A stretch of DNA of 62,927 nt, the filler included, from Asterionella formosa (taxonomy: Eukaryota): NCBI GenBank assembly GCA_002256025.1. It is 5 parts of 5 records of this genome, joined end to end, with 100 filler letters (N's around TTAATTAATTAA, not from the genome) between each part and the next. Parts side by side here need not be neighbours in the genome. Positions count along the whole stretch, not along the records: positions 37,833 to 50,335 come from NKIB01007471.1; 4 more parts are not named here. The stretch is one strand, 5' to 3'. Numbering within the stretch: the stretch's first letter is position 1; each line of letters starts with the position of its first letter. The notes beneath the pieces were generated by a model. That model was not told the DNA's origin and searched no databases. It saw only the letters and a program-made list of their open reading frames with translations. The position numbers and the translations under genes are program-made. This document shows positions 25,119 to 56,658 of the stretch, piece by piece.

Positions 25119-25128
25119 TTTACTCGGA

Positions 25129-33803: not shown

Positions 33804-34462
33804 GCAATCATTTCTATAGCGCATTAATACTAGCCCATTTTTTTCGCATTGTTCTCCATGGCCCAGAAAATTGGGGCGGTGGATTTTTTGATGCGTGGTC
33901 ACCTCCTCGTATGGAAGCTGGGTTTGAAAAAAATTTGCGCTAACGTTTATCTTGTCCCAATTTCTGTGGCTGAACAGCTCGTGTCAGCTGGAAAATTGAA
34001 TGATAAGTGCTGTGGATTGATGAAATGCCTTTTGTGTGGGCCACACTCGGGGTGTTTCTGTTGTTAATATTCCTGTGGCTCCTTGCTCTGAACCATGTGC
34101 AGCAAAAATCCTTGATTGACGTCTGACCTTGACTTGGTTAGCTTGAAGCCTGGAAGTCTCGACCAAGTAGTGTGCCTTTTCAAGAAATCGTAATTTTTAA
34201 TTCAATTTTGCTGGGAGCATATCATCTAATGGAAGTGAGAAAAGATGGGCATCATACCTGGTGCGAATTTCCCGCCGGATTGCATAGTACTTTTTTTTGT
34301 CGTCCTTGTCAAGCAATTCGAATTGGAATCGCTCAAGGAGATACGGAGTTTGCTTCAAAAGTGGCAAAGTCTATGTGAAAGCATGAAGACTTTCGAGAAA
34401 GTGCACTCCCTGGATCTGGTACTACAATATTGATAATGCGGCGATAAACGTTATAACATGAA

Positions 34463-34502
34463 TACATACATACATACATACATACATACATACATACATA
34501 CA
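34463..34502 (+). repeat. (TACA)10 microsatellite
   Basis: Read directly from the sequence. Confidence 0.95.
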
Positions 34503-35519: not shown

Positions 35520-36230
35520 TAATGAACCTTGGGTCTGACTCAAGGGTAACATTTTATTGTGTCAAAATCAAGGTACACCTTGTATAGGCATGTCCAAACA
35601 AGGTTTACCTTAAATCAGAACTGATGATCTGATTGGTTTACCAATACAAGGTGGATGCGAAAATAGCAGAAATCAATACAAGGTACACCTTGTATTGAAC
35701 ATGAACCCTATTTGAAGAAACTATCCATGCCTTGCTTGTATTCGAGGGTAATTTTGAAAATCACCTTGTATTGGGAATAATTCCCTTTCCTTGTATTGTT
35801 GGCAAGAGCATGGATTTGCAACCCTTGCTAGTAACAACAGAGCTAGCCAGTGCAACGTAAACCTTATTTTGGTTATTTACTTTTCATCTTGTATTGGATT
35901 TGAATACAATGTATTTTTGCTTTCTGTGTATCCTGGCAACTGAACCAAATAAACTCAACATAGTTTTGTCAAAGTAGCTGACTCTGAAAGCATACCTTAT
36001 TAAGACTGAAAAGAAACTATATACACCATTCTTTTATTTGAGGGTCATTTTAGAAATTAGCTTGTACTGGAAAGAAGTGCCTATATCCTTGTATTGGCCT
36101 GAGCATAGATTTGCAACCCTAATGACAAAGCTAGCCAATACAATGTCACCTTGTTTTGGCATATTATTATTTCACCTTGTGCTGGATTCCAATACAATGT
36201 CTTTTCGTTTCCTGTGTAGGTACTCTAGGA
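35520..36230. repeat. Array of CAAGGT/ACCTTG(TATTG) motifs in both orientations, with a ~300-bp higher-order duplication
   Basis: Palindrome caaggtacaccttg at about 35569 and 35679. 35790-35930 resembles 36088-36220. Confidence 0.7.
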
Positions 36231-37732
36231 AGGCCTGATAATCAAGCTATTTTTCCACATTTTGGATTAAGGTTAGCAGCTTTCAAGGACAAGCATTTTC
36301 ACACTGCAAGTCATCCCTATGATGACCCAAGTTTTGGCATATCACCAACCATTCCACACCTGCCTCATCTTTTAACAATCTCCCTGATCATGCAACTCCA
36401 AGTTTTGGCATGCATTTGGTTTTGGTCCAACCATTAGCTTGGACTAACTTGAATCAATGCCTCACATAGGACTGCTTGCTGTTTTGAAAAGTGATTTGAG
36501 TTCCTACCAGTAGGAACTTCTGGCACTTGTATTTACGTATGATGCACTCGCGAACGACCACAACACAATAATCATAAAATAGACAATTTTACACAAAGAA
36601 ATACAGACTTACCCATAAGTCATTATTGCACACAGATGTACCCTTTCGAATTTAATTATCCATACTTTACCTTAAATGTCACTTGGTTCACACTATGCAT
36701 CATTTCTTTTTGATTGTTACTCGGTTAATTAAAAGTCTACTATCATTTATGAAAACCAGTGCCGGTAGGAGTACCAGTTACTACTCTATCAGCCTATCAA
36801 GCACACAAAAATCATTTATACACCAAATGGTCCTGGTATGTATTCTGTACTCTGTGTTTTTTTAAATCATGCGGGTATATGTGTTTTCATGTATGAATTA
36901 GAGTGTATTGTATATACTCCGAGAGTAACCACTAATACGGTATTTCGTCGAATACACTGGTACTGGTACCGGTATGGTACCTGCGCTCCTTCCTACCAGT
37001 AGCATACCTGCTACGGGGTGTCAGTACCGCTACAGTAACAGGTACACGAAGGACTGGGAAGGCCTTGGTGCGGTCATTTGCTGACGACGAAAAGATGCTC
37101 GCCTTTCACATACATTGCTACCGGTATATCCATATATGCACAGTGATCTTGTGTACTTTTACATGGGACTCCTCTATTTAGAACATTACTGTTCTTATTG
37201 AAACCGACAGTACTGGTATATACAGGGACATAAAGATTTACATGATACCAGGTATTGTCCATATTTATGTTCACTGTAAGTAAGTGAGTGACAAAAGGCT
37301 GTCTCTGTCACAGCCAAAAATTCATCAACCAAAGCAGAATTCTGTGTACCTGGTACCAGGTAGATCATACGGGGAGATGGGTCCCTGGTAGGTACTATTG
37401 TAGTAAGTACCTGGTACCCAGGTACAGGTACCGACATGCCGCTATGGATTGGTATACCGGGTAGTCTAATAAAAATATACCCCATCGCAAACCAGTACCG
37501 TTATTATGATACACCGGTATTCATAGGTATATGACCCGTTTGTTGGTTCTTCAACTGAAAAGTACAGTATAATCAATATTACTTATTCATTTCCCCGCAA
37601 CAATGGCCACGTATACATCGAGTCCAGACGAGAGGCAGAGACGGATCAAAGAGGAGATGGAAAGCTCCGAGCGAAGAAGCCGTGAGGTAGATACTGACCC
37701 TCGGAGCAGTGACGAAATCTCACCACTGGCTT

Positions 37733-37832
37733 NNNNNNNNNNNNNNNNNNNNNNNNNNNNNNNNNNNNNNNNNNNNTTAATTAATTAANNNNNNNNNNNN
37801 NNNNNNNNNNNNNNNNNNNNNNNNNNNNNNNN
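37733..37832. other. Artificial contig linker
   Basis: N-run with central TTAATTAATTAA. Confidence 0.98.
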
Positions 37833-38260
37833 GAGACATGCAATGCTCAACGATGCTCAACAAGTACCAACGGTGCTTTATTTCCAATCTGGCAGGCTAT
37901 TGTAATCTCTACAATCAACAATGACTTAATTATGTGTCTACAACATCAACTACTACTACTACGTGTGCTGAATTCTACAGTGTGAATCTTCCTCTTGCAT
38001 GTGTTATTCTTTGCCAGTTCAGATCAAAGAAATATGTCGGAGCGGAAAAAATAATAAGTGAATCGGAATTGGCGACTCTTTCGTTCATTATATGGTGAAA
38101 GCAGCATAATATTGCGGCAGAGCAGCATAATTTCGCTTTTAAACTGTTGCGATGGCTAGTTGGTCAACATATATTGTCACGAACACACATAATTATTGGT
38201 GTGATCACATAATTATTCGATAAGTGAAATAAATTTTTGTTTAACCCGAATAAATTAGGG

Positions 38261-38338
38261 AAAAAGTAGCATAATATTTCAAAAAAGTAACATAATATTT
38301 TAGAAAAGTAACATAATATTTTAAAAAAGTAGCATAAA
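38261..38338 (+). repeat. 21-bp tandem repeat x~4 (aaaaagta(g/a)cataatattt)
   Basis: Read directly from the sequence. Confidence 0.85.
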
Positions 38339-38399
38339 TACGTCACTTTACACATAAATTCGAAAAAGTGCCGTAAACGGCGTCTTAGATGTAGGACCA

Positions 38400-39703
38400 G
38401 CATGCATTTTGGTCACCCTTGAGTGGGTAATCCTTGTCTGGAATATGTCTAGTTTTTCCCATCCAACAAGTTGTGTTGGATATTGCTTTGTGATCACAAT
38501 TTTATGTGGCACCCTGCGAGAGCGCTATTTACAACATTAGGTTCAGTATTCCCCCCATTGCCTGTTTGATAGGAGAGTTAGTCGATACATTGCTCCAAGT
38601 TTTCGAGTTTTGTCTCTTTTGCAGGTCAGAAAGCCGCTCTTGTTTCGTATCGTCATGCTATTGTCCTCGAAGATCACTTGATTACCCTTGTCAATCATTC
38701 TTGAGACACTGATGATGTTCTGCTTGAACTCCAGTGCATGAAGCACATCGGTCAGTTTCAAAGGTTTTCCTTTGTCCATAGTGGTCGTCTGTCAGGGTCA
38801 CGGTACCAGAGACAGTTGATTCTATCTCAGTTCCATTCCCTACCATGACCGTTTCACTCACTTGTTTGTGCGATGTGAACAGTAGAACCGCTGTCTAACA
38901 ACCAGCGATTTCTGACGTCACGAGCGAGGTTGACTTCCTCGTTGTAACTAATTTCGACACACATGGTGGGTATGAACATTCCTTGCTGGGTAGATGTAGT
39001 CATGTTATTCTCTTCGCTTTTATTATGTTTAGATGCGCTGTTTCTGGTGCACTCACTTGCGTAGCGTCCCATGCGTTGGCACTTGAAACACTTGATCTTT
39101 TTCCTCTTTTCTTTCTGCTCAGGAGTGAGCTCCTTCTTGTTGGCACTATCGCCCTTGCTTGCTGCGACAGTCAGCTGCCTTGTGGCCATACTTGCCACAC
39201 TTACAACAGTCACCTTTGAACCTCCCTTTCGTGTAGAAGGCATGTTCACTCTTGTTCTTGTTAGTCGTTTTGAAATCATCCCGGAAATATAGATCGTAGT
39301 AATCGCGGATGTCTGTCATAATCTCGTCGACCATTAGCGTGTTGTGCGCCAGGCCAAACCTTCCTACTACCAAACTCTTGTAGCTACCTAGTAGTTTGTT
39401 GATCATGTGTGCCACATGGGCACCATCCGAAACAGCGGATCTCGTATTGCCCAATCATTCCCGGATAAAATCCAACTCCGAATACCAGCTGTCGGGTTCT
39501 CATTTTCCCTTAGAGTGCACTTCGTCCATTGGTGGGATAAGGCAACGGCATTTGCCATGTTGCCTGACTTAAACGTGTCCCATGCTTTTTTAGCATTGCC
39601 ATTAGGAAACTCGGCACTTCTTGCATTATTTACGTGTCCGAATGGTCCACTCTGGCATGCCATCATCAAACTTGCGTAAGCAACTGTGTTGTTCCTTCGG
39701 ATG
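38400..39703 (-). mobile_element. Ty1/copia gag-protease remnant (distal part of the element split by transposon copy 3)
   Basis: AYASLMMAC...PNGNAKKAWD, zinc knuckles FKGDCCKCGKYGHKAADC and CFKCQRMGRYASEC, protease WLLDSGSTVHI, LTDVLH...NIISVS. Confidence 0.9.
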
Positions 39704-40265
39704 CGTCTGCAAATAAAAACTATCATATTTCCATGAAGCATCATAGGATTGTGATCATCTCATCATAATATTTCGTTATATCATCTAATAATTTGGATAA
39801 ATGCCTTTGTAATTTAAATAGTAACCCTTTTGACTACATATATTTAATTATTATATGTATTGTTTCTATTTGATTCCTGTATTCGAATTTCTTGGTAGGA
39901 TAATGTAACAGTTCAAGTAATGTAATTTGGCTCATCATTTCCATCCGTCATCACTCCGATTTTTGCAACAACAACGAAATACTAGCGATGACAAGCGGAA
40001 TGAATGTTTGCGATAACGTCTTCAATTTGTTGGTCAAGTGATCTTTATATCTTCGAGTAATTGTCATGTGCAGTGAACCTTTGTTCATAATCATTCAATT
40101 AAGAGTTTACAGGAGAGAAGAAATCATTCGAACTCGTAATGGTTCCGCACACAGCGCACAAAGTATATCCGTTTCGTCCACTTCAGCATGACAATCTCGC
40201 CAATCAACCCGTAAACAAACACATTCTACTTGTTCTCGTTGACATTTTCAATTCTCACATGATAC

Positions 40266-40352
40266 TACATCTACTATTGAGATTCAGCATAGAAGGAGAT
40301 ACGAAAATTTTACATCTACTATTGAGATTCAGCATAGAAGGAGATACGAAAA
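40266..40352 (+). repeat. 45-bp tandem duplication, followed by a diverged ~200-250-bp duplication (40470-40900)
   Basis: tacatctactattgagattcagcatagaaggagatacgaaaa at 40266 and 40311. Confidence 0.9.
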
Positions 40353-41816
40353 TGTGCATTACAGACTACTGTCCACAGCATAGCTATAGTTATAGAATGA
40401 TTCTGATTAGAATGTATTTCATTTTCATATCGCTCGCTCGTTTCTGCATTTGGCATACTGAACTTGAATTAACTATTGAACTTTTCCGCATCTTTGATAC
40501 CATCAAGAGAGCGAAAGCAAGTGGCTCTTTTCATTGTTGTTTGCTCGTAGGAAAAATTTGATATCTGTATCGTCATTTGCTTGTTGGAATTGTCCGTTGC
40601 CTCAAACCTGCTAGGCGTGTGCGTACACACACTGTCGACTTGTTTTCATTGGTATGTTGTTCTTGTATTCACTGTTGAACTTGTCCGCATCTTTGATAAC
40701 ATCAATAGAGCGACAAGTGGGTTTCTTCATTGTTATTTGCTCCTGGAAAAGTCTGTGTCCGTGTCATCCTCATCAATAGAGAGACAAGTTCTTTCGCTGG
40801 AAAAATTGGTACTCGTGGTATCATCATTCGCTCGTTGGAACCACTGTCCGTTTCCTCAAACCTGATTAGCGTGTGGGTATGTGCACTGTCGACTTTTGTA
40901 CATTACAGGCGGAGTGACTTGTTATCTACTAAATTACGTGATAACAATATACCCCGTAGTACGATGCATAATACAGTTGCTTCCCAATCATCTCATCATG
41001 ATTGATAAGATGATAATGTGATATCATGATAGGGTTACATCGATGCATACATCACCAAAGTATGATACGTAATAATGAATAAAGTACATTACATAGCTAT
41101 GATGCAGCGATCATGAAACTGTGATGATTTTTTAAAATGTATATGGTATAATTTTGATCAATATATGATTATGTAAAAATAGTACAATGACAATAAAGTA
41201 CGATATAATATGTACGTAAGTGTTATCGATACATCACAGAAAATAAATAAATAAATCATAATTATGTTACTTAATATAGAAATTCGCTTTTTAATGTATA
41301 CAGTTAAAGTCAACACTTAATATGATAGTATTATACAGTGGATAGGATCTAAGTATACGGATGCATTGATATGTACATCACTATAATATGATTTGTGATA
41401 TGGATTGATGCATATCACATACCGGTATCCTCAACAACCAGCCATCATGTTCATTGTCATGTCGTCTTTCCTTGTTTTAGCTATATATATGCCAGCATGT
41501 GTATTGTGTAAACACTACACTTGCGGAACATGCATATTACACTGTGCTCTGTTCAACAATTACTACACTCGGTTACCATCACACCAGTTCAACCTCCATA
41601 AGCGCCGCAATAAGCTCCGCGTTTCCCTTCCACTGTTTTACATCATTGTCTTCTGGCCCTTTGACAACTTGCTTTCCAAATGGCATCTAACGGATTTCAT
41701 GGAAAGGATCAGTCAAACAAGAAACGAGACTTACTTCCATTGTTTACACTACACGACTTTATGTTTTCGGAAAAGAAGATGAAGAAACTTATGAAATCAA
41801 TCATTCGAAGGTTCCT

Positions 41817-43835
41817 TTGAATACACTCAAAGATCAAATGAATTTTGAACAGATTCATAATACTCCAGAAGAAATAATGAAGCATGCCGATACAATAGTG
41901 GCTGAGATTGAAAAGAAGGAAAGATTGCTTTCGAAGAGGAAACCCAAACAGTTGGTCTTTGTAAATGAAGACTCTATTCGTACAGAGTCACAGTTCCACC
42001 ATCCATTGTCGTATTTTGCTCATTCAACCGAAATCGCTGATAATGAAGAAGAACTCAGTGATTCTCATTCATTTGATGAACAAATTCATGCGATGAATGA
42101 AAATATGGGCGGAAATGTGGCAGACAACACTTCAGATGAAAAGTTGCAAAACCAAGAAACATATCTCACTATCCGTCCAGAACATCAAGATGAACATCAT
42201 GAAAGCAGAGAAACTATTGCATTTATAAAAGAACAGATATTCAAGAAAAAGTCTGAGCTAGATCAAGACCTCGAATTCAAGAAGATCAATGCAGATAGAG
42301 ATGTGATGCTGGCTAAGGCAGTTGATGCTCTGAATAGGGAACGAAGTCAGAAACACAAAATTGAATCTTTTTCCAAATCATACATGGAAGAAAAAGAATT
42401 TCTTTGTAAAATCATTGAAAACAATCCAGAAGGCAGCTATTTTTGTGAAAAGTCGGCATGTGAAATGTGTAGAGTTATTATGCCAAAGCAAACGGCATTT
42501 TCCTTGAGTTTGCCGAAATCGCATGGACAACTAAAATTGCGGAAAGAGTTGTACACTCGTACCCCGCAAGATATATGCAATTACGCCTCTGTATTTTATG
42601 GAGTCAAAGTTATCAAAAAATCATCTTCAGATTTTAAAGATCTTGCATATTGGGACCTTGAAACAATTACCTCTATGATCCATTATATGATTCATGAACT
42701 TCATCCAACTTGTGTAAAGGTTATCTTTGATTTGGATGAGGACCCAGAAAAGGTTAATAAAGATCCATATATATACCAAGGTGATTGTCATCCACTTCAT
42801 CACGAAAGTAACTATGTGCTAATTGTTTATTGCAAAAGATCAGATGAGGAGGAGGAAAACAACCATTTTGTGCATTATCTTTTTGCTATAAATGATGGAT
42901 TATGTCAAGTCCATGACCCAGGAAAAGATGCAAATGTGGATGACATTATGATCAAGTATTTCACCTTGCCCGTAAGTACTGCATCATCACTGGATGCAGA
43001 AAAGGATTGGAATTGTTATGCACCGATACAGGATATCTTCCACAAGAATCCCATATACCTGAAGCAATTTGGTTCTCGGAATCTTTCTATACTGACACCA
43101 AAGCACCATTGCAGATTAGTATGGCCACTGAACATTATTCCATGTTATTTCAACCAGAAGATGACAGTGGATGGTCATGTGGACCTTTTACAATTGTGAA
43201 AGTGTTGGAAACTCTATTGCAACAAGAAAGGAATGGCAAAACCAAATTTCTTGGCAAACGGCCACATTTCCGTTTGGAGACTAAGTCCTGGAAAGCTTTA
43301 AAACGTCAGGTGGCAGCAATAGATCGAACAGACGATTTCTTATCCATTACATCTGACCCACCAACCAAGTCAACATACTTTCATCTTGGAACAGTTGGGC
43401 CTCAAGTGACAACGACAAATTTTTGTGAGGATATGTTTCAGTTGGACATAACTGTTCTTCAATTTTGTATCGACAAAATTTTGAGCTCCTATTTAGATTT
43501 AAAAATTTTGAACGAAGTATTTGGACGAGTTTCTTGCAACTCTTCTTTTCAAGAAGGATGAAGTTGTCTACGAAAAATCCGTGATACAACAAAGTAATGA
43601 CAAACTTGCTCCCTTCAAATGGTATAATCATGCACCTCTTGGACAAATTTCTGGATGCATCACAATTGACAAAAACTTGAAAGAAAATTTTGTATCTGAT
43701 GATAGCCCTTTTGGAATCAACTTGAAGAAGTTTGCAGACTCATATCGAACTGCAGTTGAAAAGTGGAGAAGCAAAATTTCGGACGAAACGAAAAGGACCA
43801 TCTTAGGTTCTTTGGGAGTGAAAAAGAACAAATAA
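41817..43835 (+). pseudogene. Gene B (Ulp1-like protease), two frameshifts; true start probably further upstream
   Basis: Acidic/coiled-coil N-terminal part, CxxxxCxxC, WDLETITSMI, NNHFVHYLFAINDGLCQVHDP, LFQPEDDSGWSCGPF. Confidence 0.7.
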
Positions 43836-43956
43836 TGGACCATTGGATAATCATTTATCTAAGGAAATTGTAGTTTGTGAAAACCTTCATGATAACCAAT
43901 TTAGTATGCGAAACTATATTGTTACCATTATCATTTATATTACTCTTTTATTTTTA

Positions 43957-44516
43957 TCAACGTTCGCTTGTTAGTTTTTGGTCCCACCCGATTGATTTCC
44001 ATGAATTACGTGGAGGAATGGCAACATTAAAATTATCTTTCCGTATCTGTTCCAAAACTTCTTGCGGTTTCAGAGACTTCCTTGATTCCTGTGGTTTCAA
44101 AGCAGGAACAACAAATGCTGCCGAAAGTATGTTATGAAATTCAACAACGCTCAATTCTGTTGTATCAATGCATAAGTTGTCTCCTCTTGCCAAAAACAAA
44201 CGTTTATGAATTTTCATGTCAGGTGAACTTGGATAGGACACATAATCTCTTCTTGTCTAATCTCCCTAAATGCTGCAGCAGCTACACTGCTGCAATCATT
44301 AACTTCTTTCCTTGAATGATTAGATGCACTACTGCAATACATAGTTTCACTAGTATGTATTACAGGAACTCGATGTTCTTGCATGCAATGTCGACAGTGA
44401 CCATATGCATAAAAAACACGGTTGCTACAATTTCCATTGTGAGACTCAGATGGGGATTTGTTCTTCCGAAATTTGTAGTTACACAGAAAACACCATTGCA
44501 ATGTGCGTAAAGACAT
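43957..44516 (-). pseudogene. Internally deleted Plavaka transposase (N-terminus fused to C-terminus)
   Basis: MSLRTLQWCFLCNYKFRKN...HCRHCMQEHR matches the copy 1 N-terminus. TTELSVVEF.NILSAAFVVPALKPQE...WKSIGW..K..SER* matches its C-terminus. About 2.9 kb of core is missing. Confidence 0.85.
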
Positions 44517-44826
44517 TGCAAATTGCAATTGATGAACAAGTCAGGATATGAAAAGTATAGAATGAAAATGAATTAATATATAAAAATAAATTGAGCGCCA
44601 CTTCGAACAGGCTGTGCTGGAAAATACAGAGTCGTGAAATTATCACTCCACCATAGTAGTAAAAATGGAGGTATACCGCTACATGTAGTACAGGCGGCAC
44701 TAATAGTAAATGTAGTATAGAGCAGAATCAATGTTTTCCTATCATCTATGATATGGCTTGCGTTGTAGAAGTCTCACACTTACTATAATTATTATCATGT
44801 AACTACTAAGTATGCATTGGATTCTA

Positions 44827-46578
44827 TTAGATCCATTCAAAATCAACATTGTCATCAATGTCCCGTTGATTAATGCGGTCATTGTAATCAATATTCTTTT
44901 CAGGAACATTTGGTTGAAGTGATACAACAAATTGATGCATATCCTCTTTACTTACGTTGGGAAATGAGAAGTATGAGTGTGGGTAGATGATATATGTTCC
45001 GAAAGTAGCAATTCCACTAGGATTCCTTCCATATTCAGATCGATTCTTTTGTGAAAGTCCAGTATAGATTTCCTTATACTAATATACGAGTAAATCATCA
45101 GTCCATTGATCAGTAAGACCATTTGAAACTGAACTTTCTTCCCTCACACTTTTTTGATACGTGGTTTCCCACCAATGTCGACAAAATCGGTAGAATGATG
45201 AATTTCGTTCTCTGAAATTTCATGGGTATCTGGATTGAAACCCAAATATTTTTGTTGCAATCGGAATTTTCCTTTCAACACCAAGACGCAAAAGGCTTCT
45301 GTACTGGCATTGATCAGCAAACCAACAAAACATGATTGCAATTCACACTGTGCCCGAAGACTTAGTTGAATTTTGGCTTGGTCACACCAGATTTGTCTAC
45401 TGTTAAAAATGGTTTTCCACGGCTTGTCCTGCCTATAAAATAAACTGGAGCAAGGACGCACATCACGCCAGACTTGGCATCCTTGGCTTCCCCTGTCAAT
45501 TTCCCTTGACTGCGCAAAACGATAAAGCGTGAACACCACCTAATAAAGTCATCAATATCCATAGTCTGGAAGTTATATTTTGTTAAACCAGCTGGTGTGT
45601 CGTGAATTATGTTAGCATTTTGAAATTGAAACATATTTGATAAGAATATAATCACCGACTCAAAGCATCATGCTTTCAGAGCATCTCCCGCCCTGCAAGA
45701 ACTTACCTAAGATTCCTTTAAATTGATTATTCAATACATTCTGACATTCTCTAAACTTTTTAATGCACATGCCACCTAATGTTGATTTGATGTAATCTAA
45801 ACGTGCCTTGTTGATACATTCAAGGGTCTGATTCATCGGAAGTAGTGCATCAGAACCATTCCATATGTAATCGGCAAGCTCTGGGTCACTCTCCAATTCT
45901 TTGCCTAACCCCGGTTTCACTGTGTATAGCCGAGTTAGGCAGGTCAGCATGGGGCAAACCAATCCAGTTTTTGATTGGAAATGCCTTTCATACTACTTGG
46001 ACCAGATAGGCAGGGCGGGATGTTTGATTCTCTTTTGGGACCAGAAAAAAGCACATTAGATTGATATTCTGTTTTATAGTACGTGCAATTCACAAACTAT
46101 AACATCAAACTTACATGTTCACAGCGAAACTTCTTGGTCTTGAAAACAAATAAAACTCAAAAACTTTGTGACAACTGATGGTTCATTTTTAGCTAAGCGA
46201 GAACGACATTCTGATAAGGCTGCTGAAATTGCAGATTCTTGATAACCTCGTATGGACGAGTTTTGAACCGAATTACGACCTTTGTAGTGATTGAGTTCAT
46301 TGACCAATTGATAATATCCTTCGGCAAGTGCAAAATGTTTTTCCCTCAGTTTGTCATGTACTTGTTGGTCCGTGCGATTAGAGAATGTATGAAATGGTAC
46401 CATGTCGTCCATCTGCATCCGGGAGTTTTCCCAATCGCCGATTGGGTTGCTTTGGATAATCGCCTATTCGCTTTTTCTTTGTAAAGTCATTTTGGAACTT
46501 GCTTCTTTGTTCCATACCGGCAGTATTTGCCACATGTCGCTATTTTCCATGAACCTCTTTATGGTTTCTTGAAGACAT
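44827..46578 (-). pseudogene. Gene A, near full length, disrupted
   Basis: Same motifs and intron positions as 3451-5412. Confidence 0.72.
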
Positions 46579-46619
46579 TGTACTACTTGATAACTGTTGT
46601 CGTTGTCTTCCTTGAAGTT

Positions 46620-46900
46620 CGATGATCTTAAATTCATTTACTGTCCCTCTGCAGTAGCTGCAGTCATAGACATATGGTGTTCTGTTGCTTGCTTATTACT
46701 CCGACTATTGGTTTTTATTTTTACGATCATACGATCCTAATACTATGATGATTTTCTGTCCCACTGCAGTAGCAACAGTCCTGAACATATGGTGTTCTAT
46801 TGGTTTTTAGTTTAACGATCATACGATCCTAAAACTATGATGATTTACTGTCCCACTGCAGTAGCAACAGTCCTGAACATACGGTGTTCTGTTGCTAGTT
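46620..46900 (+). repeat. Three diverged ~90-110-bp tandem units
   Basis: tgtccc.ctgcagtagc..cagtc...acata.ggtgttct occurs three times here and once in the paralog (~15036-15115). Confidence 0.8.
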
Positions 46901-47357
46901 TACTACTCCGACTACCCCCAGTATATCACTTACTACCTGCTACTGGTACTCTGTATATATACATGATATATTGTTATTGTAATATTATGTACCGGTACAC
47001 ATGAAGAGCTCCCAACCAAAAAAGGGGCTTGAACAATTTGCTACCAAAACCCTTGCGGTTATGACTTACACTAATTGAATGGTCTAAATAATTAGTTTCA
47101 ACGGACGTTGAAAATATCGATGCAAACAAATTTCAAAAAAACAGTACCGGTACACATAGTCATGGAAAACAATGGACATTTAGTGCATTGAGTATTTTCG
47201 AATTATGTATATGCGAGTATGATCAACTCAACCATACCAGATGTTCCATATCGAGAGCGCCTTTGAATTTCATAAATGTATAACACTTCATATATATACA
47301 CATTTACAAATTTTATTACTCTATTCATGGCATATGTATATTTGAAATCGTTTTGTC

Positions 47358-48150
47358 ATGTTAACAAACAATGCATGCTGCTTCATGAAAAGATTGGTCG
47401 TAGTAAAGCATATGACAATAAGAAAAGAAAGTTTACTCAATTTATAACGAAAAACATTGTGACTTCGAGCGACACATTGCGCATTCGAAGGATGGAGAAA
47501 GTTTAAGGTAATGAAGCCATCAATGTGGTACTTGGTTGACAATCATTGGGAGACAGGACAACAACAAATTGTTAACTAAACGCACATTTCCTTTTTTCTC
47601 AGTTGAATCAACAGCTCGTTTCGCTTGTTGGGGAGCACCAATGTAAAACAAAACCAAATTGCGTAAGTGCTGTTGTCGCTCGTTGGACCTATTCACTTCT
47701 TTTGGAACAAAACTAACAAAATGTTTACCTTCTCTCAAAGCTAAGATGACAAAAATGAACCGGTAAGTTTTATTCGACAACATTGGATACCCGAAACTTA
47801 CTTATTCAAGAATTTACTGACAAGTTACTATTACAGACTTATGCATCACTTGCTTTGATTTGGCTGTGGTAAGTGAAGCAAGCGAGAGGATGCAATGGAA
47901 TGGCGTGATGTTGTGTCAGTGTAACATGTCCAGCTAACAAGTCATTCCTTCTCATTGTTATTGTATTTGCATAGGACAATAATACCAATCAAAAAAGGAA
48001 TATTCGACGAGTTCAGAATGACACTAACAGCAGGAAGAGAGACGCAACATTAGTAAGGCATTGCTTGGCACAAGATTCAGAAAAGAGGAAGAAAAGGGTG
48101 GGACAGGAAAAATATACATTGAGCCGAGCAGAGAGAGAAACGTTGGGTCA
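47358..48150 (+). pseudogene. Gene C homolog (also at ~15702-16470); boundaries approximate
   Basis: ATGTTAACAAACAATGC start shared with 15702. Intron 47663-47740 with CTAAC branch site. Confidence 0.4.
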
Positions 48151-48599
48151 CTGGCATGTAAATAGATAGCATTGCTTAATTTGATAGTTAAATTACGATC
48201 CATTTCAATCTATTTTGAACAATGCTTGTGAATAGAATTATGATCATGTTTACGATAGATTTATGATGAAACAATTCACATGATAGCATAGAGTTGAGCT
48301 GGCTTTAGGATACGTTGTAGTTATAATTTACATCGGGCGATCACGAGAAGTGAAAATAATATGAGAAGGTTTATGATATTGATGGGAAATGTTGTTGATC
48401 AGTTTATATACATTGTGTGATGATAATGTTCTTATTATCATAATACTTCAAGGTCGGTAAAATATTAATAAATCATCATAGTTACAAGATACCCTGATCA
48501 TATTTTTGATCCAAAAATTATCATATATACGAAAATCCTGTGCCACTTAGCGTACAATACCCTTGATCCTATATGCATGATACTTTTTATTTGCAGACC

Positions 48600-49215
48600 T
48601 GCATTTCTCGTCAGCATCTGACAAAATGATCGTAGCGCCCTTTAGGTGTTTCTCTCCTCTTGATATTTTGTCACCGTTAAGTATTCCTTGAAAGTTCTTT
48701 AGCACGCATATGTGAGAAACTTCGCTTTCCATATGTGCCATTTAGCATCTTGCCCATTGAATGTCGGCAACCTCACTGACGTGTCTTTGTCACTTCCCGT
48801 CGTTCCTGAGTAGCCTGTGGCCTTCAAAGGTGCGCTTTAAAGCGTGTTGAAAGGTCTCGTACTCCTTCCTGTCTGACGGGTTCCTCTTACGTAGGACTTA
48901 CCTGTTATACCACTAGTATTGTTATCTTCTTTCTGCTGCTAGCCTTTGTGCTAGTTTTCGCTATTGACCTGCCCTACTATGTCAATTCTCACTCTTTCTT
49001 AATTATAAGCTTAAACCAAAACTAAGTTTCAATCCCATTCATTACACTTTGAGAGCCTGTTCTTGGTGTTCCCTTTTTGTTGATGTAAAACTGCTTCTGA
49101 TTGATCTAAGACATCAGTCTTGTTAGCAAGCTTCTGACTAATTGGACTATAGTCGAGTCCACATTCCTTGTGACTCAATATAGCCATTTTGATGCTATAC
49201 CCGGTATTCTTGACA
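48600..49215 (-). mobile_element. Copia LTR (49215->~48845, TG...CA) and gag N-terminus
   Basis: VRLPTFNGQDAKWHIWKAKFLTYAC/KNFQGILNG is a typical copia gag start. The LTR is homologous to 325-601. Confidence 0.8.
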
Positions 49216-49482
49216 TCCTTATCGTCCTCGGTACAAACTCTACCTGGTACTACTAGGGACGCAATAAGAAATGGATAGATTCTCCGGGTTTTCCCGCGCC
49301 AATTACGGTACCGGTACTTTTATGTACCGGTATGCTCATGTTTTCGTCCGAACAAGCAAATTGGTCTTCCGGTATCCATACTGTTACCTATTTGCTTGTA
49401 GTCGTATTGAATCAGTTTCATCCGCGCGGAGTTAGCATCCAGAAACAGGGAGACAGTCATCGAAGCCATCTCAACGACGGAA

Positions 49483-50335
49483 ATGGAAAAAGAAAGCGCT
49501 TCACAATCTCGAAGCTCCCAAAATGATGAGGGAAAGGACAACGAGCAAATAACCCTCAATGAACTCCTTCAGTCAACGGTATCTTACAGCAAACCTCGAG
49601 CCAACCGCGCAGAAACTGTTCGCATCATTGACGCTCTCACGAGGGAAGGTATGCGTCCTTCTCCTTCCAGCCTATTCGGAAATGGCGCCATGCTTGTATC
49701 GGACATTCCTGGGAGTGCTTTCAAGGAAGGTGTTAACATGGGAATTGACGAAGCTGGCCGTGGTCCCGTCCTTGGTCCAATGACTTACGCGGCTGCATTT
49801 TGGGCAAAATCACAGGATTCAAAAGTTCCCCATGGCTTTAATGATTCCAAGCAACTGACTGCCGACTCGCGCGAGAACTTATATCGGCAAATAATGACTT
49901 GCTCTGAAATGGGCTTTGTCTTACGGGTCCTACATGCATCCGAAATTTCCCGAAACATGCTTCGCAAGGAGCCATACAATCTCAATGCAATGTCACATGA
50001 TGCCGCTATGCAAATGATTCAGGCGGTTTTGGATGCTGGGGTCAAGATCCATAACTGCTACGTCGATACCGTGGGGAGTCCAGAAGCCTATCAAAGTAGA
50101 TTGAACAGAGTCTTCGCCGAACACGACATCAACTTTGTCGTTGAGAAGAAGGCAGATTCGAAGTATGCAGAGTGCTCAGCTGGTTCTATTGGTACGTATC
50201 TTAGGAATAATTGAATGTCATGCTTTGGCCATTGGTATTTTTGATGAGACTGTGTGCCTTATTGCTAAACTTTCCACACTAATTGCACTTGAAATATATT
50301 TATTTCAATTCCATTCATTGCAGTTGCCAAGGTGG
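49483..50335 (+). CDS. RNASEH2A: Ribonuclease H2 subunit A, 3'-partial; exon 49483-50191, intron 50192-50323, exon 50324->contig end
   Basis: GIDEAGRGPVLGPM, DSKQLT, YNLNAMSHD, YVDTVG, KADSKY..CSAGSI|VAKV. Confidence 0.93.
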
Positions 50336-50435
50336 NNNNNNNNNNNNNNNNNNNNNNNNNNNNNNNNNNNNNNNNNNNNTTAATTAATTAANNNNNNNNN
50401 NNNNNNNNNNNNNNNNNNNNNNNNNNNNNNNNNNN
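50336..50435. other. Artificial contig linker
   Basis: N-run with central TTAATTAATTAA. Confidence 0.98.
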
Positions 50436-50689
50436 CAAGATGCGGTCATTTTGCTAAAATCAACAATTCAATCTAGGATAAAGATAGCTAAATCTTTCGT
50501 TTTGCAAAATTACCGCAACTTGCCTGGTAGTCTATACACCCCGGAAAGCACATAACTCAAAACTCTAACAATATGTAATACAGAGCAGGATCTCCCATAC
50601 AGTGGGTTGGCTTCCAGATCATAATTTCATGATTGTAGGTGACTGTTGGACTAGTTTAGAGCTTAATAGACTACATTATGTTGTATAAT

Positions 50690-52984
50690 TTAAAAGCATA
50701 ATGCCAAAGATGGAAGGACAACAGACACACCCCAATAAGTAAGTAATGTGCCACTTGATACATTCAGTGGTTTTGATACAATTTTGCCAGCAGTTGTAGG
50801 AATAGATGTCACCATATGTGATGCAACAAACTGGGGCGGACTTGTCAACACTCCAGCAGTCACAGTAGTAAGTGGTGAGGCTGTAGGAAGTAAACCAGGA
50901 AAGGTTGTGGTTGTAGGGACAGATATATCCAATAATGATGCAGTTGGACGAGCCGTTACAACAAAAAATGATGGAGAAAGTGTGCTATCAAGTTTGATTG
51001 CTGGTGGAGAAGTTTGCTCAGTGCTGACAGGAGCAAGTGTTGTTGTGACTGGCAAAGGTGTAGAACCAGCTTTGAGTGGAGCAGATGTAACTCTTGCAAC
51101 ATGAGAAGGTACAATTGTTAGAACAGGTGTAACTTCTGTAACAGGACCTCTTGTCACTGGCAGATGAAGTGGAACTGTTGTTGTTGTTGCCACAGGCGAC
51201 AATGTCCTGACAATGATAGATACAGAAGTGCCTTTTGAAAATGGCATAAATGTTGCTGTAGTAATTGGAGTAGGTGTAATCTTTGTAACAGGAACATGCG
51301 TCACAGCAGGTATTGGAGCAGATGTAATCACTGCAATAGGATAAAGTGTTGGACTTGCCATTGGAACTGGTGAAAAAGGGATGGCAACAGAATTTGTGAT
51401 GTTCATAATTGGAGCAGATGTCACAGTTGCAACAGGATAATCCAAAGTTGGGGTGCTGTTGCAGCCACAAAAGGAACCAATCTCATGTTGCAGTTCTGCA
51501 CATTGAGTTTCATTTGCTACATACCGAAGGTAATCATCGTATTGTCCACATGAGAAACCATCAGGAAGGGTTGCATTTGTGTTTGGAGGGAATTGACCAT
51601 TTGAGCAAACACCGGAACAGGAAGGAATATTTCCATCACAGCCACAAGACAAACCAATGCTTTGTTGAATCTCAGCACATTGAGTTTCATCTGAAACAAA
51701 CTGAAGGTAGACATCCCACTCTTCACATGATGTATTGTAGAAATATGTCAAATTGCCATTAGGAGGAGGCTTGCCATTTTGACAAACACCAGAACAGATA
51801 GGAACAATTCCTGGGCAACCACAAAAGGAACCAATGCTTTGCTGGATCTCAGTACATTGGGTCTCATTAGTCACAAACTTGAGATAGTCATCATATTGTT
51901 GACACAAGATATCCTGCAAAGGGCTAATATTACCATTTTGAGGGGGCTGACCATCGGAACAAACACCAGAACAGGTTGGTACAGTATCTGCACAGCCGCA
52001 ATAAGAACCAATGCTTTGTTGAATCTCAGCACATTGAGTCTTATCTGAAACAAATTGAATATAGGAATTCAAATCTTCACATGATGTATTGTAGACAAAC
52101 GTAGTATTACCATTTGGAGGAGGCTGACCATTGGAACAAACACCAGAACAGGTAGGAACAATTCCTGGGCAACCACAGAAAGAACCAATGCTTTGCTGAA
52201 TCTCAGTGCATTGAGTCTCATTGGAAACTAGCCTGAGGTACTGGTCATATTGTTGACATGATGTACCATCAATCAAAGTAGTATTGCCATTTGGAGGAGG
52301 CTGACCATTGGAACAAACGCCAAGACAAGTAGTATTAGACTCAAATCCAGCACAGCCACAAAAAAAACCAATGCTTTGCTGAATCTCAGTGCATTGAGTC
52401 TCATTGGAAACTAGCCTGAGGTACTGGTCATATTGTTGACATGATGTACCATCAATCAAAGTAGTATTGCCATTTGGAGGAGGCTGACCATTGGAACAAA
52501 CACCAGGACAAGTAGTATTAGACTCAAATCCAGCACAGCCACAAAAGGAACCAATGCTTTGCTGAATCTCAGTGCATTGAGTCTCATTGGAAACTAGTTT
52601 TAGGTAGTCATTGTAATCTCCACAAGAAACACCACCAAACCAAGTTGTATTCGGATTTGGAGGAGGCTGACCATTGGAGCAAAGACCAGAACAAAAAGTA
52701 GAACCATCAGGTGCAGCAATTCCAATTTCATCAACAGTAGTGCACCCACAGGATTCACCAAGTTCTTGGAAAGTAAAACATTCTGTATCATTCAAAACAG
52801 AGACAAACGCTACTGCCATGTTGCAAGTAATATTTCCCAATTCTTTATCATGAAGTAAAATTACATGGCCATTAGTGGGTGTGGCATTTCCAGGGCACAA
52901 GGTGCACTCGTCAGCTGTACTAGTCTTGACTATCATGGTGACTAGTAGGGTAACAAGCACAGTCAGTATCATGTTTCTCTTCAT
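50690..52984 (-). CDS. Secreted/surface protein with ~8 six-Cys repeats, a Thr/Pro-rich stalk and a hydrophobic, GPI-like C-terminus
   Basis: Signal-like MKRNMILTVLVTLLVTMIV. Repeats of C.gvCsnGqpPpN...sC..y...vsnetqC.eiQqsiGsfCGC (59-62 aa). Many N-x-T/S sequons. Confidence 0.85.
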   Translation of the reverse strand: MKRNMILTVLVTLLVTMIVKTSTADECTLCPGNATPTNGHVILLHDKELGNITCNMAVAFVSVLNDTECFTFQELGESCGCTTVDEIGIAAPDGSTFCSGLCSNGQPPPNPNTTWFGGVSCGDYNDYLKLVSNETQCTEIQQSIGSFCGCAGFESNTTCPGVCSNGQPPPNGNTTLIDGTSCQQYDQYLRLVSNETQCTEIQQSIGFFCGCAGFESNTTCLGVCSNGQPPPNGNTTLIDGTSCQQYDQYLRLVSNETQCTEIQQSIGSFCGCPGIVPTCSGVCSNGQPPPNGNTTFVYNTSCEDLNSYIQFVSDKTQCAEIQQSIGSYCGCADTVPTCSGVCSDGQPPQNGNISPLQDILCQQYDDYLKFVTNETQCTEIQQSIGSFCGCPGIVPICSGVCQNGKPPPNGNLTYFYNTSCEEWDVYLQFVSDETQCAEIQQSIGLSCGCDGNIPSCSGVCSNGQFPPNTNATLPDGFSCGQYDDYLRYVANETQCAELQHEIGSFCGCNSTPTLDYPVATVTSAPIMNITNSVAIPFSPVPMASPTLYPIAVITSAPIPAVTHVPVTKITPTPITTATFMPFSKGTSVSIIVRTLSPVATTTTVPLHLPVTRGPVTEVTPVLTIVPSHVARVTSAPLKAGSTPLPVTTTLAPVSTEQTSPPAIKLDSTLSPSFFVVTARPTASLLDISVPTTTTFPGLLPTASPLTTVTAGVLTSPPQFVASHMVTSIPTTAGKIVSKPLNVSSGTLLTYWGVSVVLPSLALCF

Positions 52985-53973
52985 TTGACTGCCGTTAATG
53001 TTGAGTGTTTCATACAAACCAAATGATAAATAAGAGCCGAATAACAAGAACAATGAGCCAATCCATCACTCATGTCTCTTGGTTTCAAACACTGGGAAAT
53101 CGGTTCATTCCACTATCAATCTCATCTTGTGCGAGATTACTTTTATTGAATACTCCATATTGCTATTACGAGAAGTCAGCAGTTATAAATTCTGTCGTGC
53201 ACGACTTGAAGCAAAACAAACGGGAGGTTGGTTTTCTGGTGAGAAATTCGTTTTGATTCCATGTAATGTCGTCCTCAAATCGTTTTCTTGTGACATGGCT
53301 GATATGCATGTTCCTTTCTCCCGGTAATTACTACCGTTTCTATGCCAGTATGTATATGCATGCGCTTCTATTCTATTATGACTATTATTTTTTGTGTGGA
53401 TATGCGGCACACGAAAATAGGATTAGCGAATGTCTGCTATTGGCTGAAGGAGTTTAGATGACTGAAATGCAAAATGTGCGTACATGTACAGCACCATCAA
53501 GGTCGAATAATTAAGCTCTGCTGACAACGCTTATCGTGATGCGATGCATATGTACACAATACATATGTATGATGTGTCGTGCGATGGATGATATTGTGAT
53601 ATAGTGTTTTCTTTGTCCTGGGGTTTGAAATTATCGTTTATTCATAGCTATAGACTAAAGTCAGTCTATCCATGTAGGATAGATCAAATTACAAAAGAAC
53701 CGGTAGTGCATACCGGCACTAGACAGTACCGGTAAATAAATTGTCATTTCCCCCCTACCCAACCCATAAAAACAATTGGAGCATCATGATTTGGCGTTGT
53801 GATACTTATGCATACTAGAATTGAACTGAAGACGGTAATTTGCAGCGTACAAGGTTCTCTATTATTAAAATCACAAGCTATTTAATTGGCGTTTTGCCAA
53901 ATAGAGGCCGATCCAGAGCTGTTGGATTCAGGCTTTTACAAAGGATTGCATTGTGGTGGTCAAGCAATTAAAT

Positions 53974-54564
53974 TTAGTTGGGGATGAGGGACACTCCAAG
54001 TTTCTCGTGAACCATGAGGGCAAGGATTCCCATCTGGGCAGCACGGCCCTGGTTGAGCTCAATGGCACGCTTGGAAAGCTGGGTCTCAGCATCGAACGAG
54101 TCCCATCCAAAGTCGAGGGCTCCGTTACGGAAATCTCCAACAAACTCTCCTCCAGTAATGTCCTTCATGACAGCAACTTCGAGGAAGCCGATGAAAGCAA
54201 CGATTTGGGCAATTCCGGCTCCAGAAATGGCATCGAGAGCACCGAATCCGTTAGGGATGGAGGCGAAGGTGGTGCCAGAGTAGTCAATGTCACCTGGGAG
54301 ACGGATTCCGTTCTCAGCAACAAGGTATCCAACAACGGCAAGCATGGAGATACGTCCGTGCTTGATCTCGACATAACGAAGGCGGTCGAACTTGTCCTGG
54401 TCACCATCAGAAACCATGCCAAGAGGATCAAAGAATCCAAGAGGAGCTTGGGCACCGAGTTCGTTTTCGAAAGCCATGTTCACAGCAGTGGTCTTGGCGG
54501 CCTGCTTGGCAGGGGCGAAGGCAGCGGCAGAGGCGAGGAGGGAGGCGATGATAACAGACTTCAT
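53974..54564 (-). CDS. LHCF: Fucoxanthin-chlorophyll a/c binding protein
   Basis: AAAFAP targeting motif, ELGAQAPLGFFDPLG, RYVEIKHGRISMLA, RAIELNQGRAAQMG. Confidence 0.97.
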   Translation of the reverse strand: MKSVIIASLLASAAAFAPAKQAAKTTAVNMAFENELGAQAPLGFFDPLGMVSDGDQDKFDRLRYVEIKHGRISMLAVVGYLVAENGIRLPGDIDYSGTTFASIPNGFGALDAISGAGIAQIVAFIGFLEVAVMKDITGGEFVGDFRNGALDFGWDSFDAETQLSKRAIELNQGRAAQMGILALMVHEKLGVSLIPN

Positions 54565-55274
54565 GTTGTTGTTGTTTGGTGTTGTTGTTGTTTGTTATGT
54601 GTCGACGAGAGGAAATTGTGAGTTTCTCGAAATAGAAGTACATTTGTACATTTTGTGTTTTGGAAATGAACAGTAGGGTTCTGTGTCGTGATTCTACGAC
54701 ATAAATATTGTACAATATTTCCACACAGGAACTGGTACATAATATTTCCTCGTAAATCCATGTGTGCGAAGGGAATCCTTGCCCTTCAAGTAGCACTGTA
54801 TCACTCGATTTGGCCAGATCTCATTCAACATGATGCTGAGCAACATCAATTTGACCAGGTGGTCGGGTTAGCCTTCATCGGTGCCTATCCGTCCTTGAGA
54901 GTCATCAATTGTCCGGTTCTCTAGTCCAAACGATTTATGAATTGGATCCAATGATAAAGAAAATGTCCTGAATAGTGACGGACGGGATGCGATGCATCTC
55001 GTATTCCTCGACTTTGAGAACAACATGGCATCCAGAGTCAAAGTAACGGTACATATGAAAACTCTTGATTGTGGAGGCGACGAGTTTGCATTCCAGTCAT
55101 AACATGATGGTTCGCGAAATGCAGCCATTCTCTGTGACTTGTTGTGAATATTGCGCTGCAGTTTTCTACGACTGTGTGAGCGTCACAATCTCAGACGCGT
55201 TTCATCGCTCGCGAACTCGTTACCGGTAGTCGATTTCGAGCCTAGATTAAATCGAAGCGTTACAGTGTGTCACC

Positions 55275-56483
55275 ATGTTCCGAACTCAACTATTTTCTAT
55301 TGCCGGTACTCGCGGTGCTACTATCGCCCGCCGCCTACTTGCTGCCCCAGGAATTCGTGAAAAGGCCTCCATGGCCGTCGAACATCGCGCACACCAAGCA
55401 CCTCCTTTGACTCAGTCGCCAGCCTCGAGTAGGATGTTGCTTTCTCTCTTGGCTGCAGCTGCTGGCGTTGGAACTGTCTCAGCGGTTACCGCGGTCGTTG
55501 AATGCACCTCGCCTGTTCCAAAGTATGACCCCAATGGTCAACGCTTTTCGCAAGAAACATTTGGTGGACGATTTGCCCGAATGCTCTTGGCCTGCGATCC
55601 ACGTCTCTTGTTGTACAGTCACGACTATGTGCATCAATGCGCAAGTATACTGGCCAATGCAGCATTGTATGACGACCCAGCCTACAACGACCGAGCCCTC
55701 TGGGAAGCCAAGCGAGTGTTTGAAGCCGCCTGTCCTGACGGGGAAACCATTATTCCTCGACCCTTCCGCATGTCTGGATTCGTCCCATACAATGGACCCG
55801 TTTGTGTCGCCATTGTGGCGTCCCAATCCACCTTTCCACTACTATTTTCGAGCTGGGTCAATCAATCACAAAATGCCCTTGTCAATTACTACAACAGAAA
55901 TGCCAGCAGCCCCATGGCAAATGCGACACTGGCTATGAGTTATGGAGCTGCCGTAGGTTCAGCGCTCATTGTGGCCTTCGGTCTGGCCACTGCTATCCAA
56001 CGCCACTATTCACCACAACAAGCAAAGCAACTGTTGCAATGGGTGGCTTTTCCATCAGCGGTGGTGGCATCGTCGTTGAATTGCTACATTGTCCGTTCTC
56101 CTGAGCTTGAAACAGGCATTCCATTGATGAATGTACAAGGAGAAAATGTCTTGGAGGGCGCCACGTCTTTAGAAGCTGCACGTCGCGGTGTGAATGCAAC
56201 AACGGCATCTCGTGCCTTGTTACAAGCACCAGTGTACTTGTTACCACCACTCTTAATGTCCACGGCGATTGCCAAACAATGGGTGATGCGACACCCAGCC
56301 ATGATGGTACCAATGACCACGTACCTTTTGTTAACATCATTTGGAATTGGATTGCCAGCGACTGTGGCTATTTTTCCTGTTATGAGTCAAGTGAATGCGA
56401 AGGATGTGGAGGAGGGCTTTCGAAATTTGAGAGATTCCGAGGGAAAGCCATACGAGACCTTTTATTACAACAAGGGGCTGTGA
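55275..56483 (+). CDS. SFXN: Sideroflexin, copy 1
   Basis: RFSQETFGGR...DPRLL, PFRMSGFVP.N, WVNQSQNALVNYYNRNASSP, R..EL.TGI, TT.SR..L..P, E.FYYNKGL terminus. Confidence 0.9.
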   Translation: MFRTQLFSIAGTRGATIARRLLAAPGIREKASMAVEHRAHQAPPLTQSPASSRMLLSLLAAAAGVGTVSAVTAVVECTSPVPKYDPNGQRFSQETFGGRFARMLLACDPRLLLYSHDYVHQCASILANAALYDDPAYNDRALWEAKRVFEAACPDGETIIPRPFRMSGFVPYNGPVCVAIVASQSTFPLLFSSWVNQSQNALVNYYNRNASSPMANATLAMSYGAAVGSALIVAFGLATAIQRHYSPQQAKQLLQWVAFPSAVVASSLNCYIVRSPELETGIPLMNVQGENVLEGATSLEAARRGVNATTASRALLQAPVYLLPPLLMSTAIAKQWVMRHPAMMVPMTTYLLLTSFGIGLPATVAIFPVMSQVNAKDVEEGFRNLRDSEGKPYETFYYNKGL

Positions 56484-56658
56484 ATGATATAACGTGCGCA
56501 TGAATAAACTAGAAAGTATATTTCATTCATTCGACCATGATTATTACTGCGACAATTTAGTTGATTTCATTTCTTATTTCCGCCATCAAATGACCAGTTG
56601 TTTTTCGGCTGAGGCCCTACTGCCCACTTCGGATATTTCAAACTACTGTTGACACACT

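Follow-up and report, generated by a model that had tools for sequence, protein, structure and literature searches.

Why does one short palindrome recur throughout the non-coding DNA of a diatom? The question is raised by a stretch of 62,927 bases from Asterionella formosa (GenBank assembly GCA_002256025.1), which we call the window, and by the eight-letter word TACCGGTA, whose parts read TA-CCGG-TA. The window consists of five pieces of about 12.5 kb (1-12518, 12619-25128, 25229-37732, 37833-50335 and 50436-62927), separated at 12519-12618, 25129-25228, 37733-37832 and 50336-50435 by spacers of 44 N, TTAATTAATTAA and 44 N. Because the pieces are joined by spacers, no feature can be read across a join, and anything described as window-wide refers to five separate samples of DNA. 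An earlier note on this DNA had proposed that the palindromes are scars of transposon excision, and our analysis supports that proposal. The word TACCGGTA and its nine-letter relative TACCWGGTA are very probably the excision footprints of TA-targeting, Tc1/mariner-type cut-and-paste transposons with ends that read CC(W)G. Four observations carry this conclusion: the words are enriched; they appear as unit insertions anchored on TA, in a direction set by copies of a miniature inverted-repeat transposable element (MITE); that MITE has CC(W)G tips and mostly TA flanks; and the motif and the MITE occur together. As a kind the feature is known; here it is unusually dense and apparently active.

The palindrome TACCGGTA has 23 exact matches in the window, distributed over all five pieces (3, 4, 4, 5 and 7 sites). 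Its expected number was 0.38 in 100 dinucleotide shuffles (standard deviation 0.60, largest count 2) and 0.9 in 200 third-order Markov simulations (largest count 4), an excess of about 25 to 60 times, and it is the top 8-mer of the window by observed over expected count (23 versus 0.86). The earlier note had counted at least 20 occurrences against about one expected, which the exact search bears out, and the 13 coordinates it listed are all among the 23 matches. On both strands together, 46 of 50 ACCGGTA words lie inside TACCGGTA, and therefore the unit is exactly these eight letters. The surrounding sequence carries no more than 0.25 bit per position and no pair of 60-nt flanks is more than 48% alike; these unrelated flanks indicate that the sites are independent and not copies of one repeat.

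Several variants had also been described as common, and this was true of some of them. When TACC and GGTA were separated by increasing numbers of letters, only spacings of zero (23 versus 0.97 expected) and one (13 versus 1.13) stood out, with 3 versus 0.73 at a spacing of two. The central letter is A or T in 11 of the 13 one-letter sites, so that TACCWGGTA occurs 11 times against 0.77 expected. The words TACTGGTA and TACCAGTA were mildly enriched (11 versus 3.27), whereas TACCTGTA and TACAGGTA were not (3 versus 1.97 in the window), and this is the pattern expected from CpG transitions of TACCGGTA. TACAGTA, which the earlier note had counted among the common variants, was at chance (7 versus 9.45), and so was TACGGTA, counted together with TACCGTA (5 versus 4.68). 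The sites had been placed outside host exons, and indeed none of 47 sites, comprising 23 TACCGGTA, 13 TACCNGGTA and 11 TACTGGTA or TACCAGTA, lies in an open reading frame (ORF) scored as coding; such ORFs make up 39% of the bases and contain 26% of the TA dinucleotides. The 36 clean scars fall in about 38 kb of non-coding DNA, or about one per kb, and the window holds one copy of the candidate element. Neighbouring units share a TA at 37347, 37408, 62180 and 62424. The densest patch, 36900-37520, has at least 8 clean units and many degenerate TACC..GGTA units in 600 bp, with no recognisable gene or element, and a second dense patch lies at 62100-62440.

Three motif sites (46990, 49198 and 47145) lie in alignable paralogous DNA. 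At the first, 46990-46997, piece 4 reads ATTATGTACCGGTACACATG, or ATG-TA-CCGG-TA-CACATG, where piece 2 has ATG-TA-CACATG (ATGAT-GTACACATG) with only the empty TA at 15212-15213, a gap of 6 bp. At the second, TACCCGGTA at 49198-49206 stands in GATGCTA-TA-CCCGG-TA-TTCTTGAC, and the paralogue at 584-600 reads GATACTT-TA-TTCTTGAC with an empty TA at 591-592, a gap of 7 bp. The third site, 47145-47152, is common to both paralogues and has decayed to TGCTGGTA in piece 2 (15381-15388). Two of the three sites are therefore exact indels with TA duplication, and one is common and decaying. Motif-type gaps made up 1 of 54 gap blocks in automatic paralogue alignments, which indicates that the process is specific and that this DNA has no general habit of such indels. 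A large repeated element occupies 3391-10606, 12619-16726 and 41691-48399 and carries a Plavaka-type transposase ORF at 7634-8890 on the minus strand (Pfam E 5.5e-10). Its partial paralogues in pieces 2 and 4 are 84-92% alike with about 4 kb in common, and the piece 4 copy is longer by about 1.7 kb, which lie between 43834 and 45523.

The best candidate for the source of the scars is a high-copy MITE of about 95 bp at 50436-50529, recognised by its depth, its inverted arms and its right tip. The arms, 50436-50454 and 50504-50522, form a terminal inverted repeat with 17 of 19 positions complementary. The right end reads CAACTTG-CCTGG, followed by TA at 50528-50529 and then gtc; seen from outside it is TA|CCAGG-CAAGTTGCGGTAATTTTGC. 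On the left, the piece starts inside the element and the tip is missing. We aligned contigs of four DNA runs to 50436-62927 and found that the depth over the first 88 bases (50436-50523) exceeds that of ordinary bins 134-fold in run X1 (120,592 versus about 900) and about 70-fold in run X2. Many contigs depart after 50523 into AGGTA or TGGTA, or from 50521 into CCAGGTA, and continue into unrelated sequence. Two X1 contigs fuse the right end of one MITE copy to the left end of another, through AGG-TA-CCGTG and AGG-TA-ACTTG. Contigs of X2, X6 and X8 also connect 54564 with MITE-like sequence (50502), the two being on opposite strands. This joint may represent a MITE beside a paralogue of the fucoxanthin-chlorophyll protein (FCP) gene elsewhere; summed depth in X2 and X6 is very high over the 5' end of the FCP gene (54189-54605).

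Relatives of the MITE are found in environmental DNA, and positions 53000-62900 of the window themselves have matching contigs in freshwater and lake runs of 13 studies. When metagenome contigs were scanned with the core of the inverted repeat, 69 loci emerged, of which 13 belong to the MITE family, 5 are doubtful and 51 share only the 19-letter core. The 13 family loci are 74-89% alike across the element and contain 25 TACCGGTA and 65 TACCWGGTA in 9,482 bp, so that the 9-bp scar dominates there, whereas the 51 unrelated loci have neither word in 40,257 bp. With one locus counted per duplicate set, the family has 19 MITE ends. TA stands directly ahead of CC(N0-3)G-CAAGTTGCGG at 11 of these, and one further end reads TA-T-G. 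The tips are mostly CCAG and CCTG; CCGG occurs at 2 of 19 ends, and the longer CCAAG, CCTTG, CCTGTG and CCAGAG are also present. At the ends of loci L016, L028, L001 and L036, TA is separated from the conserved GCAAGTTGCGG by CCA, CCT, CCG, CCAA, CCTT, CCTGT or CCAGA. The L016 copy has TA on both flanks, in GCATA|CC and GG|TACCAG, and many ends adjoin arrays such as GGTACCTGGTACCTGGTACCTG. The letters enclosed in the scars thus match the tips of the element: CC(W)G stands beside the conserved inverted repeat of the MITE, and the scars read TA-CC(W)GG-TA. We also tried other classes of event. A target duplication of 7 bp, or of 3 bp (CWG), was rejected because the flanks do not match. A PIF/Harbinger (Tourist-like) MITE with a 3-bp TWA duplication was rejected since the L016 flanks, ATA and TAC, have only TA in common, and hairpin "P-nucleotide" footprints of hAT type were rejected since the empty sites read TA and not TACC.

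Copies of the MITE also show the direction of change. They have a family consensus, and extra letters in one copy are therefore derived. Where the consensus is GATAGC-TA-AATC (the window, L028 and L036), L065 has TAGC-TA-CCGG-TA-CCAG-TA-TGA-TA-AATC, and L038 has TA-CCGG-TA-TGA-TA at the same position. In L038, TACCAGGTACCGG is inserted at the TA of GCT-TA-AAC within the MITE. L065, L038 and the reverse of L016 are one locus in three records. An alignment of L065 with L038 over 623 columns has 7 substitutions and 13 gap blocks; by eye, about 10 of the 13 blocks lie in or create TACC..GGTA-type sequence, with the last four blocks in a poorly aligned end. The differences include one place where TA has cleanly become TACCGGTA (gatgaTACCGGtactc) and another where 7 bp are changed within a TACCGGTA. 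They also include CCGGTA at different neighbouring TAs, GCATACCGGTATTTATTTG versus GCATATTTACCGGTATTTG (GCA-TA-CCGG-TA-TT-TA-TTTG versus GCA-TA-TT-TA-CCGG-TA-TTTG). The presence of CCGGTA at two neighbouring TAs of the same sequence requires two separate events. L065 and L016 differ over 905 columns by 2 substitutions, a CGGTAG insertion beside an existing TACCGGTA and an ordinary CATCT duplication. In both paralogue pairs of the window, in gatgaTACCGGtactc and in the insertions inside MITE copies, the filled site equals the empty site plus a duplicated TA around a few letters, as in Tc1/mariner footprints.

Strain differences were drawn from the four runs, for which 12 of 25 indels and 40 of 270 substitutions were listed. 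Run X2 has one GTACCAG unit more behind 62428, within TACCAGTACCAGGTA at 62424-62438, which gains one 7-bp unit. Three larger differences have no transposon-like ends. A segment of 126 bp at 53596-53721 is absent in X8, and 14 bp at 58386-58399 are absent in X2 and X6. One X6 contig of low depth has 13 letters in place of the 228 bp at 62196-62423, which lie between two clusters of scars.

How would such scars form? According to a review of Sleeping Beauty transposition (PMC7827188), mariner and Sleeping Beauty are first nicked three nucleotides within the element, and a cut at the exact tip follows. The donor flanks keep 3' overhangs of three nucleotides, and end joining retains these as footprints; the TA is duplicated when the element integrates there. 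In A. formosa, an element would likewise insert at TA and duplicate it. Excision would then cut a few bases inside each end, and each flank would be left with its TA and a 3' overhang of CC or CCW. With CCW tips the flanks would end in TA-CCW and WGG-TA. If one W were kept, or two W's were laid over each other, the product would be the 9-bp TACCWGGTA; if both were lost, TA-CC and GG-TA would meet as the 8-bp TACCGGTA. Tips of CCG would give TACCGGTA through an overlap of CG. This last scheme, annealing of CCG ends through CG, was the one originally proposed; the tips found are mostly CCW-G, with the few CCGG ends given above, and it survives as one possible route. Any of these routes could be the dominant source of TACCGGTA. 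If elements inserted and excised again and again within one neighbourhood, footprints would come to lie in clusters and some would have a TA in common, and CpG transitions would turn TACCGGTA into TACTGGTA or TACCAGTA. We infer the stagger of cleavage, the end-joining route, local re-insertion and the existence of an active transposase. The units with a common TA, the dense patches and the arrays at MITE ends fit repeated local insertion and excision, and slippage may add to the arrays. We raise with considerable reserve the further idea that the MITE family moves mainly by very short hops into TAs beside or inside its own scars, leaving trails of scars and building the 7-bp arrays. Insertion of scars would then at least equal point substitution in the non-coding DNA around the elements and would be a main source of new CpG palindromes in promoters, some of them perhaps adopted by the host as regulatory sites.

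Known systems resemble the one described here in part. Footprints of Sleeping Beauty and mariner, as the same review describes them (PMC7827188), likewise duplicate TA and keep tip letters as 3' overhangs, giving TA, tip letters and TA. Unlike those elements, the tips here are CC(W)G, so that the scar is TACCGGTA or TACCWGGTA under the stagger and joining route proposed above. The scars are also dense, with 36 clean examples to one element copy, and tandem units share a TA. The Sleeping Beauty footprint is TAC(A/T)GTA, and the 9-bp TACC(A/T)GGTA resembles it in its A-or-T centre. The left end of the Mos1 mariner also begins CCAGG next to TA; the likeness to Mos1 noted here concerns these first letters. 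Like Stowaway-like MITEs, the window element is short (about 95 bp), has terminal inverted repeats and mostly TA flanks, and occurs in high copy number near genes. Unlike them, it has tips of variable length, 8 of 19 ends lack an adjoining TA, and no partner transposase is known. The plant Stowaway consensus differs from the inverted repeat CC(W)GCAAGTTGCGGTMATTTTGC. In the literature that we searched for the motif, for the array words and for footprints, mariner elements and MITEs of diatoms, we found no account of this phenomenon or of such a density.

Several points weigh against excision as the source of the palindromes. A Pfam scan of 142 ORFs of the window (39 plus 103) found no Tc1/mariner transposase and yielded the Plavaka transposase, Copia remnants and host genes only; nothing recognisable was found in ORFs of loci L056 and L036. 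No TA-CC...GG-TA element with matching inner ends was found in the window, where the search returned the inverted sideroflexin duplication and chance pairs only. Among the aligned contigs we saw no direct excision of the MITE, no empty MITE insertion site and no pair of alleles with a MITE in one and a scar in the other. CCW tips are found on the window MITE and on the loose ends of its relatives, yet 8-bp scars outnumber 9-bp scars in the window (23 versus 11), and the 8-bp form needs either the loss of both W's or a CCGG-tipped family, of which none was found. TA is not directly outside the tip at 8 of 19 MITE ends, and the tips vary in length. The tips of a transposon are usually its best-kept part. 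The second of the paralogue pairs emerged only after realignment, and only 1 of the 12 indels listed (of 25) among the strains was motif-type. The differences of 7-bp units within arrays could be replication slippage. Finally, the environmental contigs may come from another species than the window.

Against these points stand the predictions of the excision footprint that came true. Both presence/absence cases among paralogues, the two pairs to which the earlier note had drawn attention, are exact TA-anchored indels of 6 and 7 bp, and several differences at the environmental locus in three records also duplicate TA. An element with mostly TA flanks and matching termini was found in the high-copy MITE with tips TA|CC(W)G, and the motif goes with it, dense in MITE contigs and absent from the 51 unrelated contigs of the same scan. 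We consider the footprint reading well supported and very likely correct.

Other readings account for part of the same evidence. One could take TACCGGTA as a cis-regulatory palindrome that is bound by a dimeric transcription factor in promoters and kept by selection. The motif is palindromic and its sites are often paired or clustered; in the host-gene parts, 17 sites fall in about 6.9 kb of promoter-bearing spacers versus none in 975 bp of 3' or convergent spacers, where about 2.4 would be expected, a difference that is not significant. The sites nevertheless arise as whole insertions of 6-7 bp with TA duplication and not by substitution, they also lie inside the Plavaka-type element and in MITE copies, and one that is common to two paralogues has decayed in one of them. 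The spacing of the two halves varies (0 or 1 nt), tandem units share a TA, and the motif accompanies a MITE from whose tips the CC...GG letters would come. Birth by whole insertion at TA, sites inside transposons and a decaying paralogous site mean that selection for a binding site does not explain the origin of the motif, nor do these features fit sites that selection creates and keeps at fixed promoter positions. We therefore regard this explanation as highly improbable, and some sites may have been co-opted later as regulatory elements.

The arrays suggest a different origin, in which a 7-bp minisatellite, (GGTACCW)n, grew, shrank and became scattered by slippage or recombination with no excision and the MITE merely prefers to insert into arrays. 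Long (GGTACCW)n arrays do adjoin MITE ends in environmental contigs, and the number of units differs between records and between strains. In the window, however, the 23 sites are individual 8-mers whose flanks are not related: they stand alone or in pairs in unique sequence, and head-to-tail arrays occur only in the environmental contigs. Isolated insertions that turn TA into TACCGGTA lie far from arrays and at alternative neighbouring TAs, slippage cannot make the first unit at a plain TA, and in the MITE the CC(W)G letters pass without a break into the conserved inverted repeat. A minisatellite origin is on these grounds improbable. The motif might also be a preferred target site of the element, or the product of some other TA-directed mutational process, and not of excision. 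MITE copies are often found in or beside motif-rich DNA, as a target preference would have it, but this gives no account of the motif arising as an insertion at a plain TA, or of inner letters that equal the tips of the element. To our knowledge, no other process adds CCGG or CCWGG between duplicated TAs, and we find this explanation scarcely credible. Excision footprints remain the reading that we prefer.

The mechanism of footprint formation is textbook transposon biology, and it is the scale that is unusual, with scar-type indels as numerous as substitutions in near-identical environmental haplotypes. If the same were true genome-wide, the genome would hold a readable record of excision events. 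Such a record could serve to measure how often excision occurs, how the ends are joined and how much local hopping there is in diatoms, a group whose DNA transposons have been little studied. Motif-discovery and promoter analyses in these algae would pick a transposon scar as their strongest "element", and transposon traffic would keep adding CpG palindromes near genes.

The remaining sites, given like all others without strand, are distributed as follows. In piece 1, TACCGGTA has exact matches at 3170-3177 and 3324-3331 and a copy at 9071-9078 inside the Plavaka-type element, between its ORFs. Piece 2 has it upstream of the recA-like gene at 17128-17135, followed by ACCTGGTA, between the divergent sedlin-like and AAA-ATPase genes at 19548-19555, and twice upstream of Hsp60 (23801-23808 and 23839-23846). 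The copy at 26758-26765 in piece 3 runs on as TACCGGTACGGTA, the one at 36967-36974 lies within the cluster TGGTACTGGTACCGGTATGGTACC, and exact matches stand at 26823-26830 and 37119-37126. Piece 4 has a further exact match at 41420-41427 and two copies upstream of RNase HII (49309-49316 and 49325-49332). In piece 5, the site at 53727-53734 has AACCGGTA and TACCGGCA ahead of it within 30 bp, 55221-55228 lies about 50 bp upstream of a sideroflexin ATG, 58462-58469 is upstream of a sulfide:quinone-oxidoreductase-like gene, and 61950-61957 is upstream of the second sideroflexin copy; exact matches follow at 62105-62112, 62271-62278 and 62361-62368.

The 9-bp form TACCAGGTA occurs at 11521-11529, at 32315-32323 within TACCAGGTTACCAGGTATACCTGTTA, at 37246-37254 and at 58762-58770. 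The word TACCTGGTACCAGGTA, two 9-bp forms with one common TA, lies at 37347-37362 and again, as an identical 16-mer, at 62180-62195. A 9-bp and a 10-bp form share one TA in TACCTGGTACCCAGGTA at 37408-37424, and TACCGGGTA and TACCTGGTA are found at 37455-37463 and 49241-49249. Further 10-bp forms are TACCGCGGTA at 11032-11041 and TACCAAGGTA at 59749-59758. The CpG-transition form TACTGGTA is located at 11465-11472, 36961-36968, 37211-37218, 46941-46948 and 58507-58514, and TACCAGTA at 24012-24019, 35228-35235, 36505-36512, 36994-37001 and 58408-58415.

The genes of the window are such as a diatom-like alga would have and include the FCP gene at 53974-54594 on the minus strand, whose best solved relatives are deposited as FCP or fucoxanthin chlorophyll a/c protein (E 1e-95); we take these closest solved chains to be diatom entries. 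Hsp60, an organellar RecA, two sideroflexins, RNase HII, an AAA ATPase and an Sm protein are also encoded. The sideroflexin genes form an inverted duplication (55246-56488 and 60607-61835) with 92.8% identity across 1.24 kb, and their upstream DNA has diverged past alignment about 50 bp before the ATG; these upstream regions align too poorly to decide whether the sites at 55221 and 61950 are the same. A long ORF at 50690-53065 on the minus strand has a cysteine-rich product with internal repeats (self-matches from 51461 to 52700) and a tail rich in Thr, Pro and Val, and it matches no Pfam family. Besides the Plavaka-type transposon, the window contains Copia-type remnants at 29203-31427 and 38546-39759, with gag/protease and RNase H-like ORFs and a match to the Pol beta-barrel.

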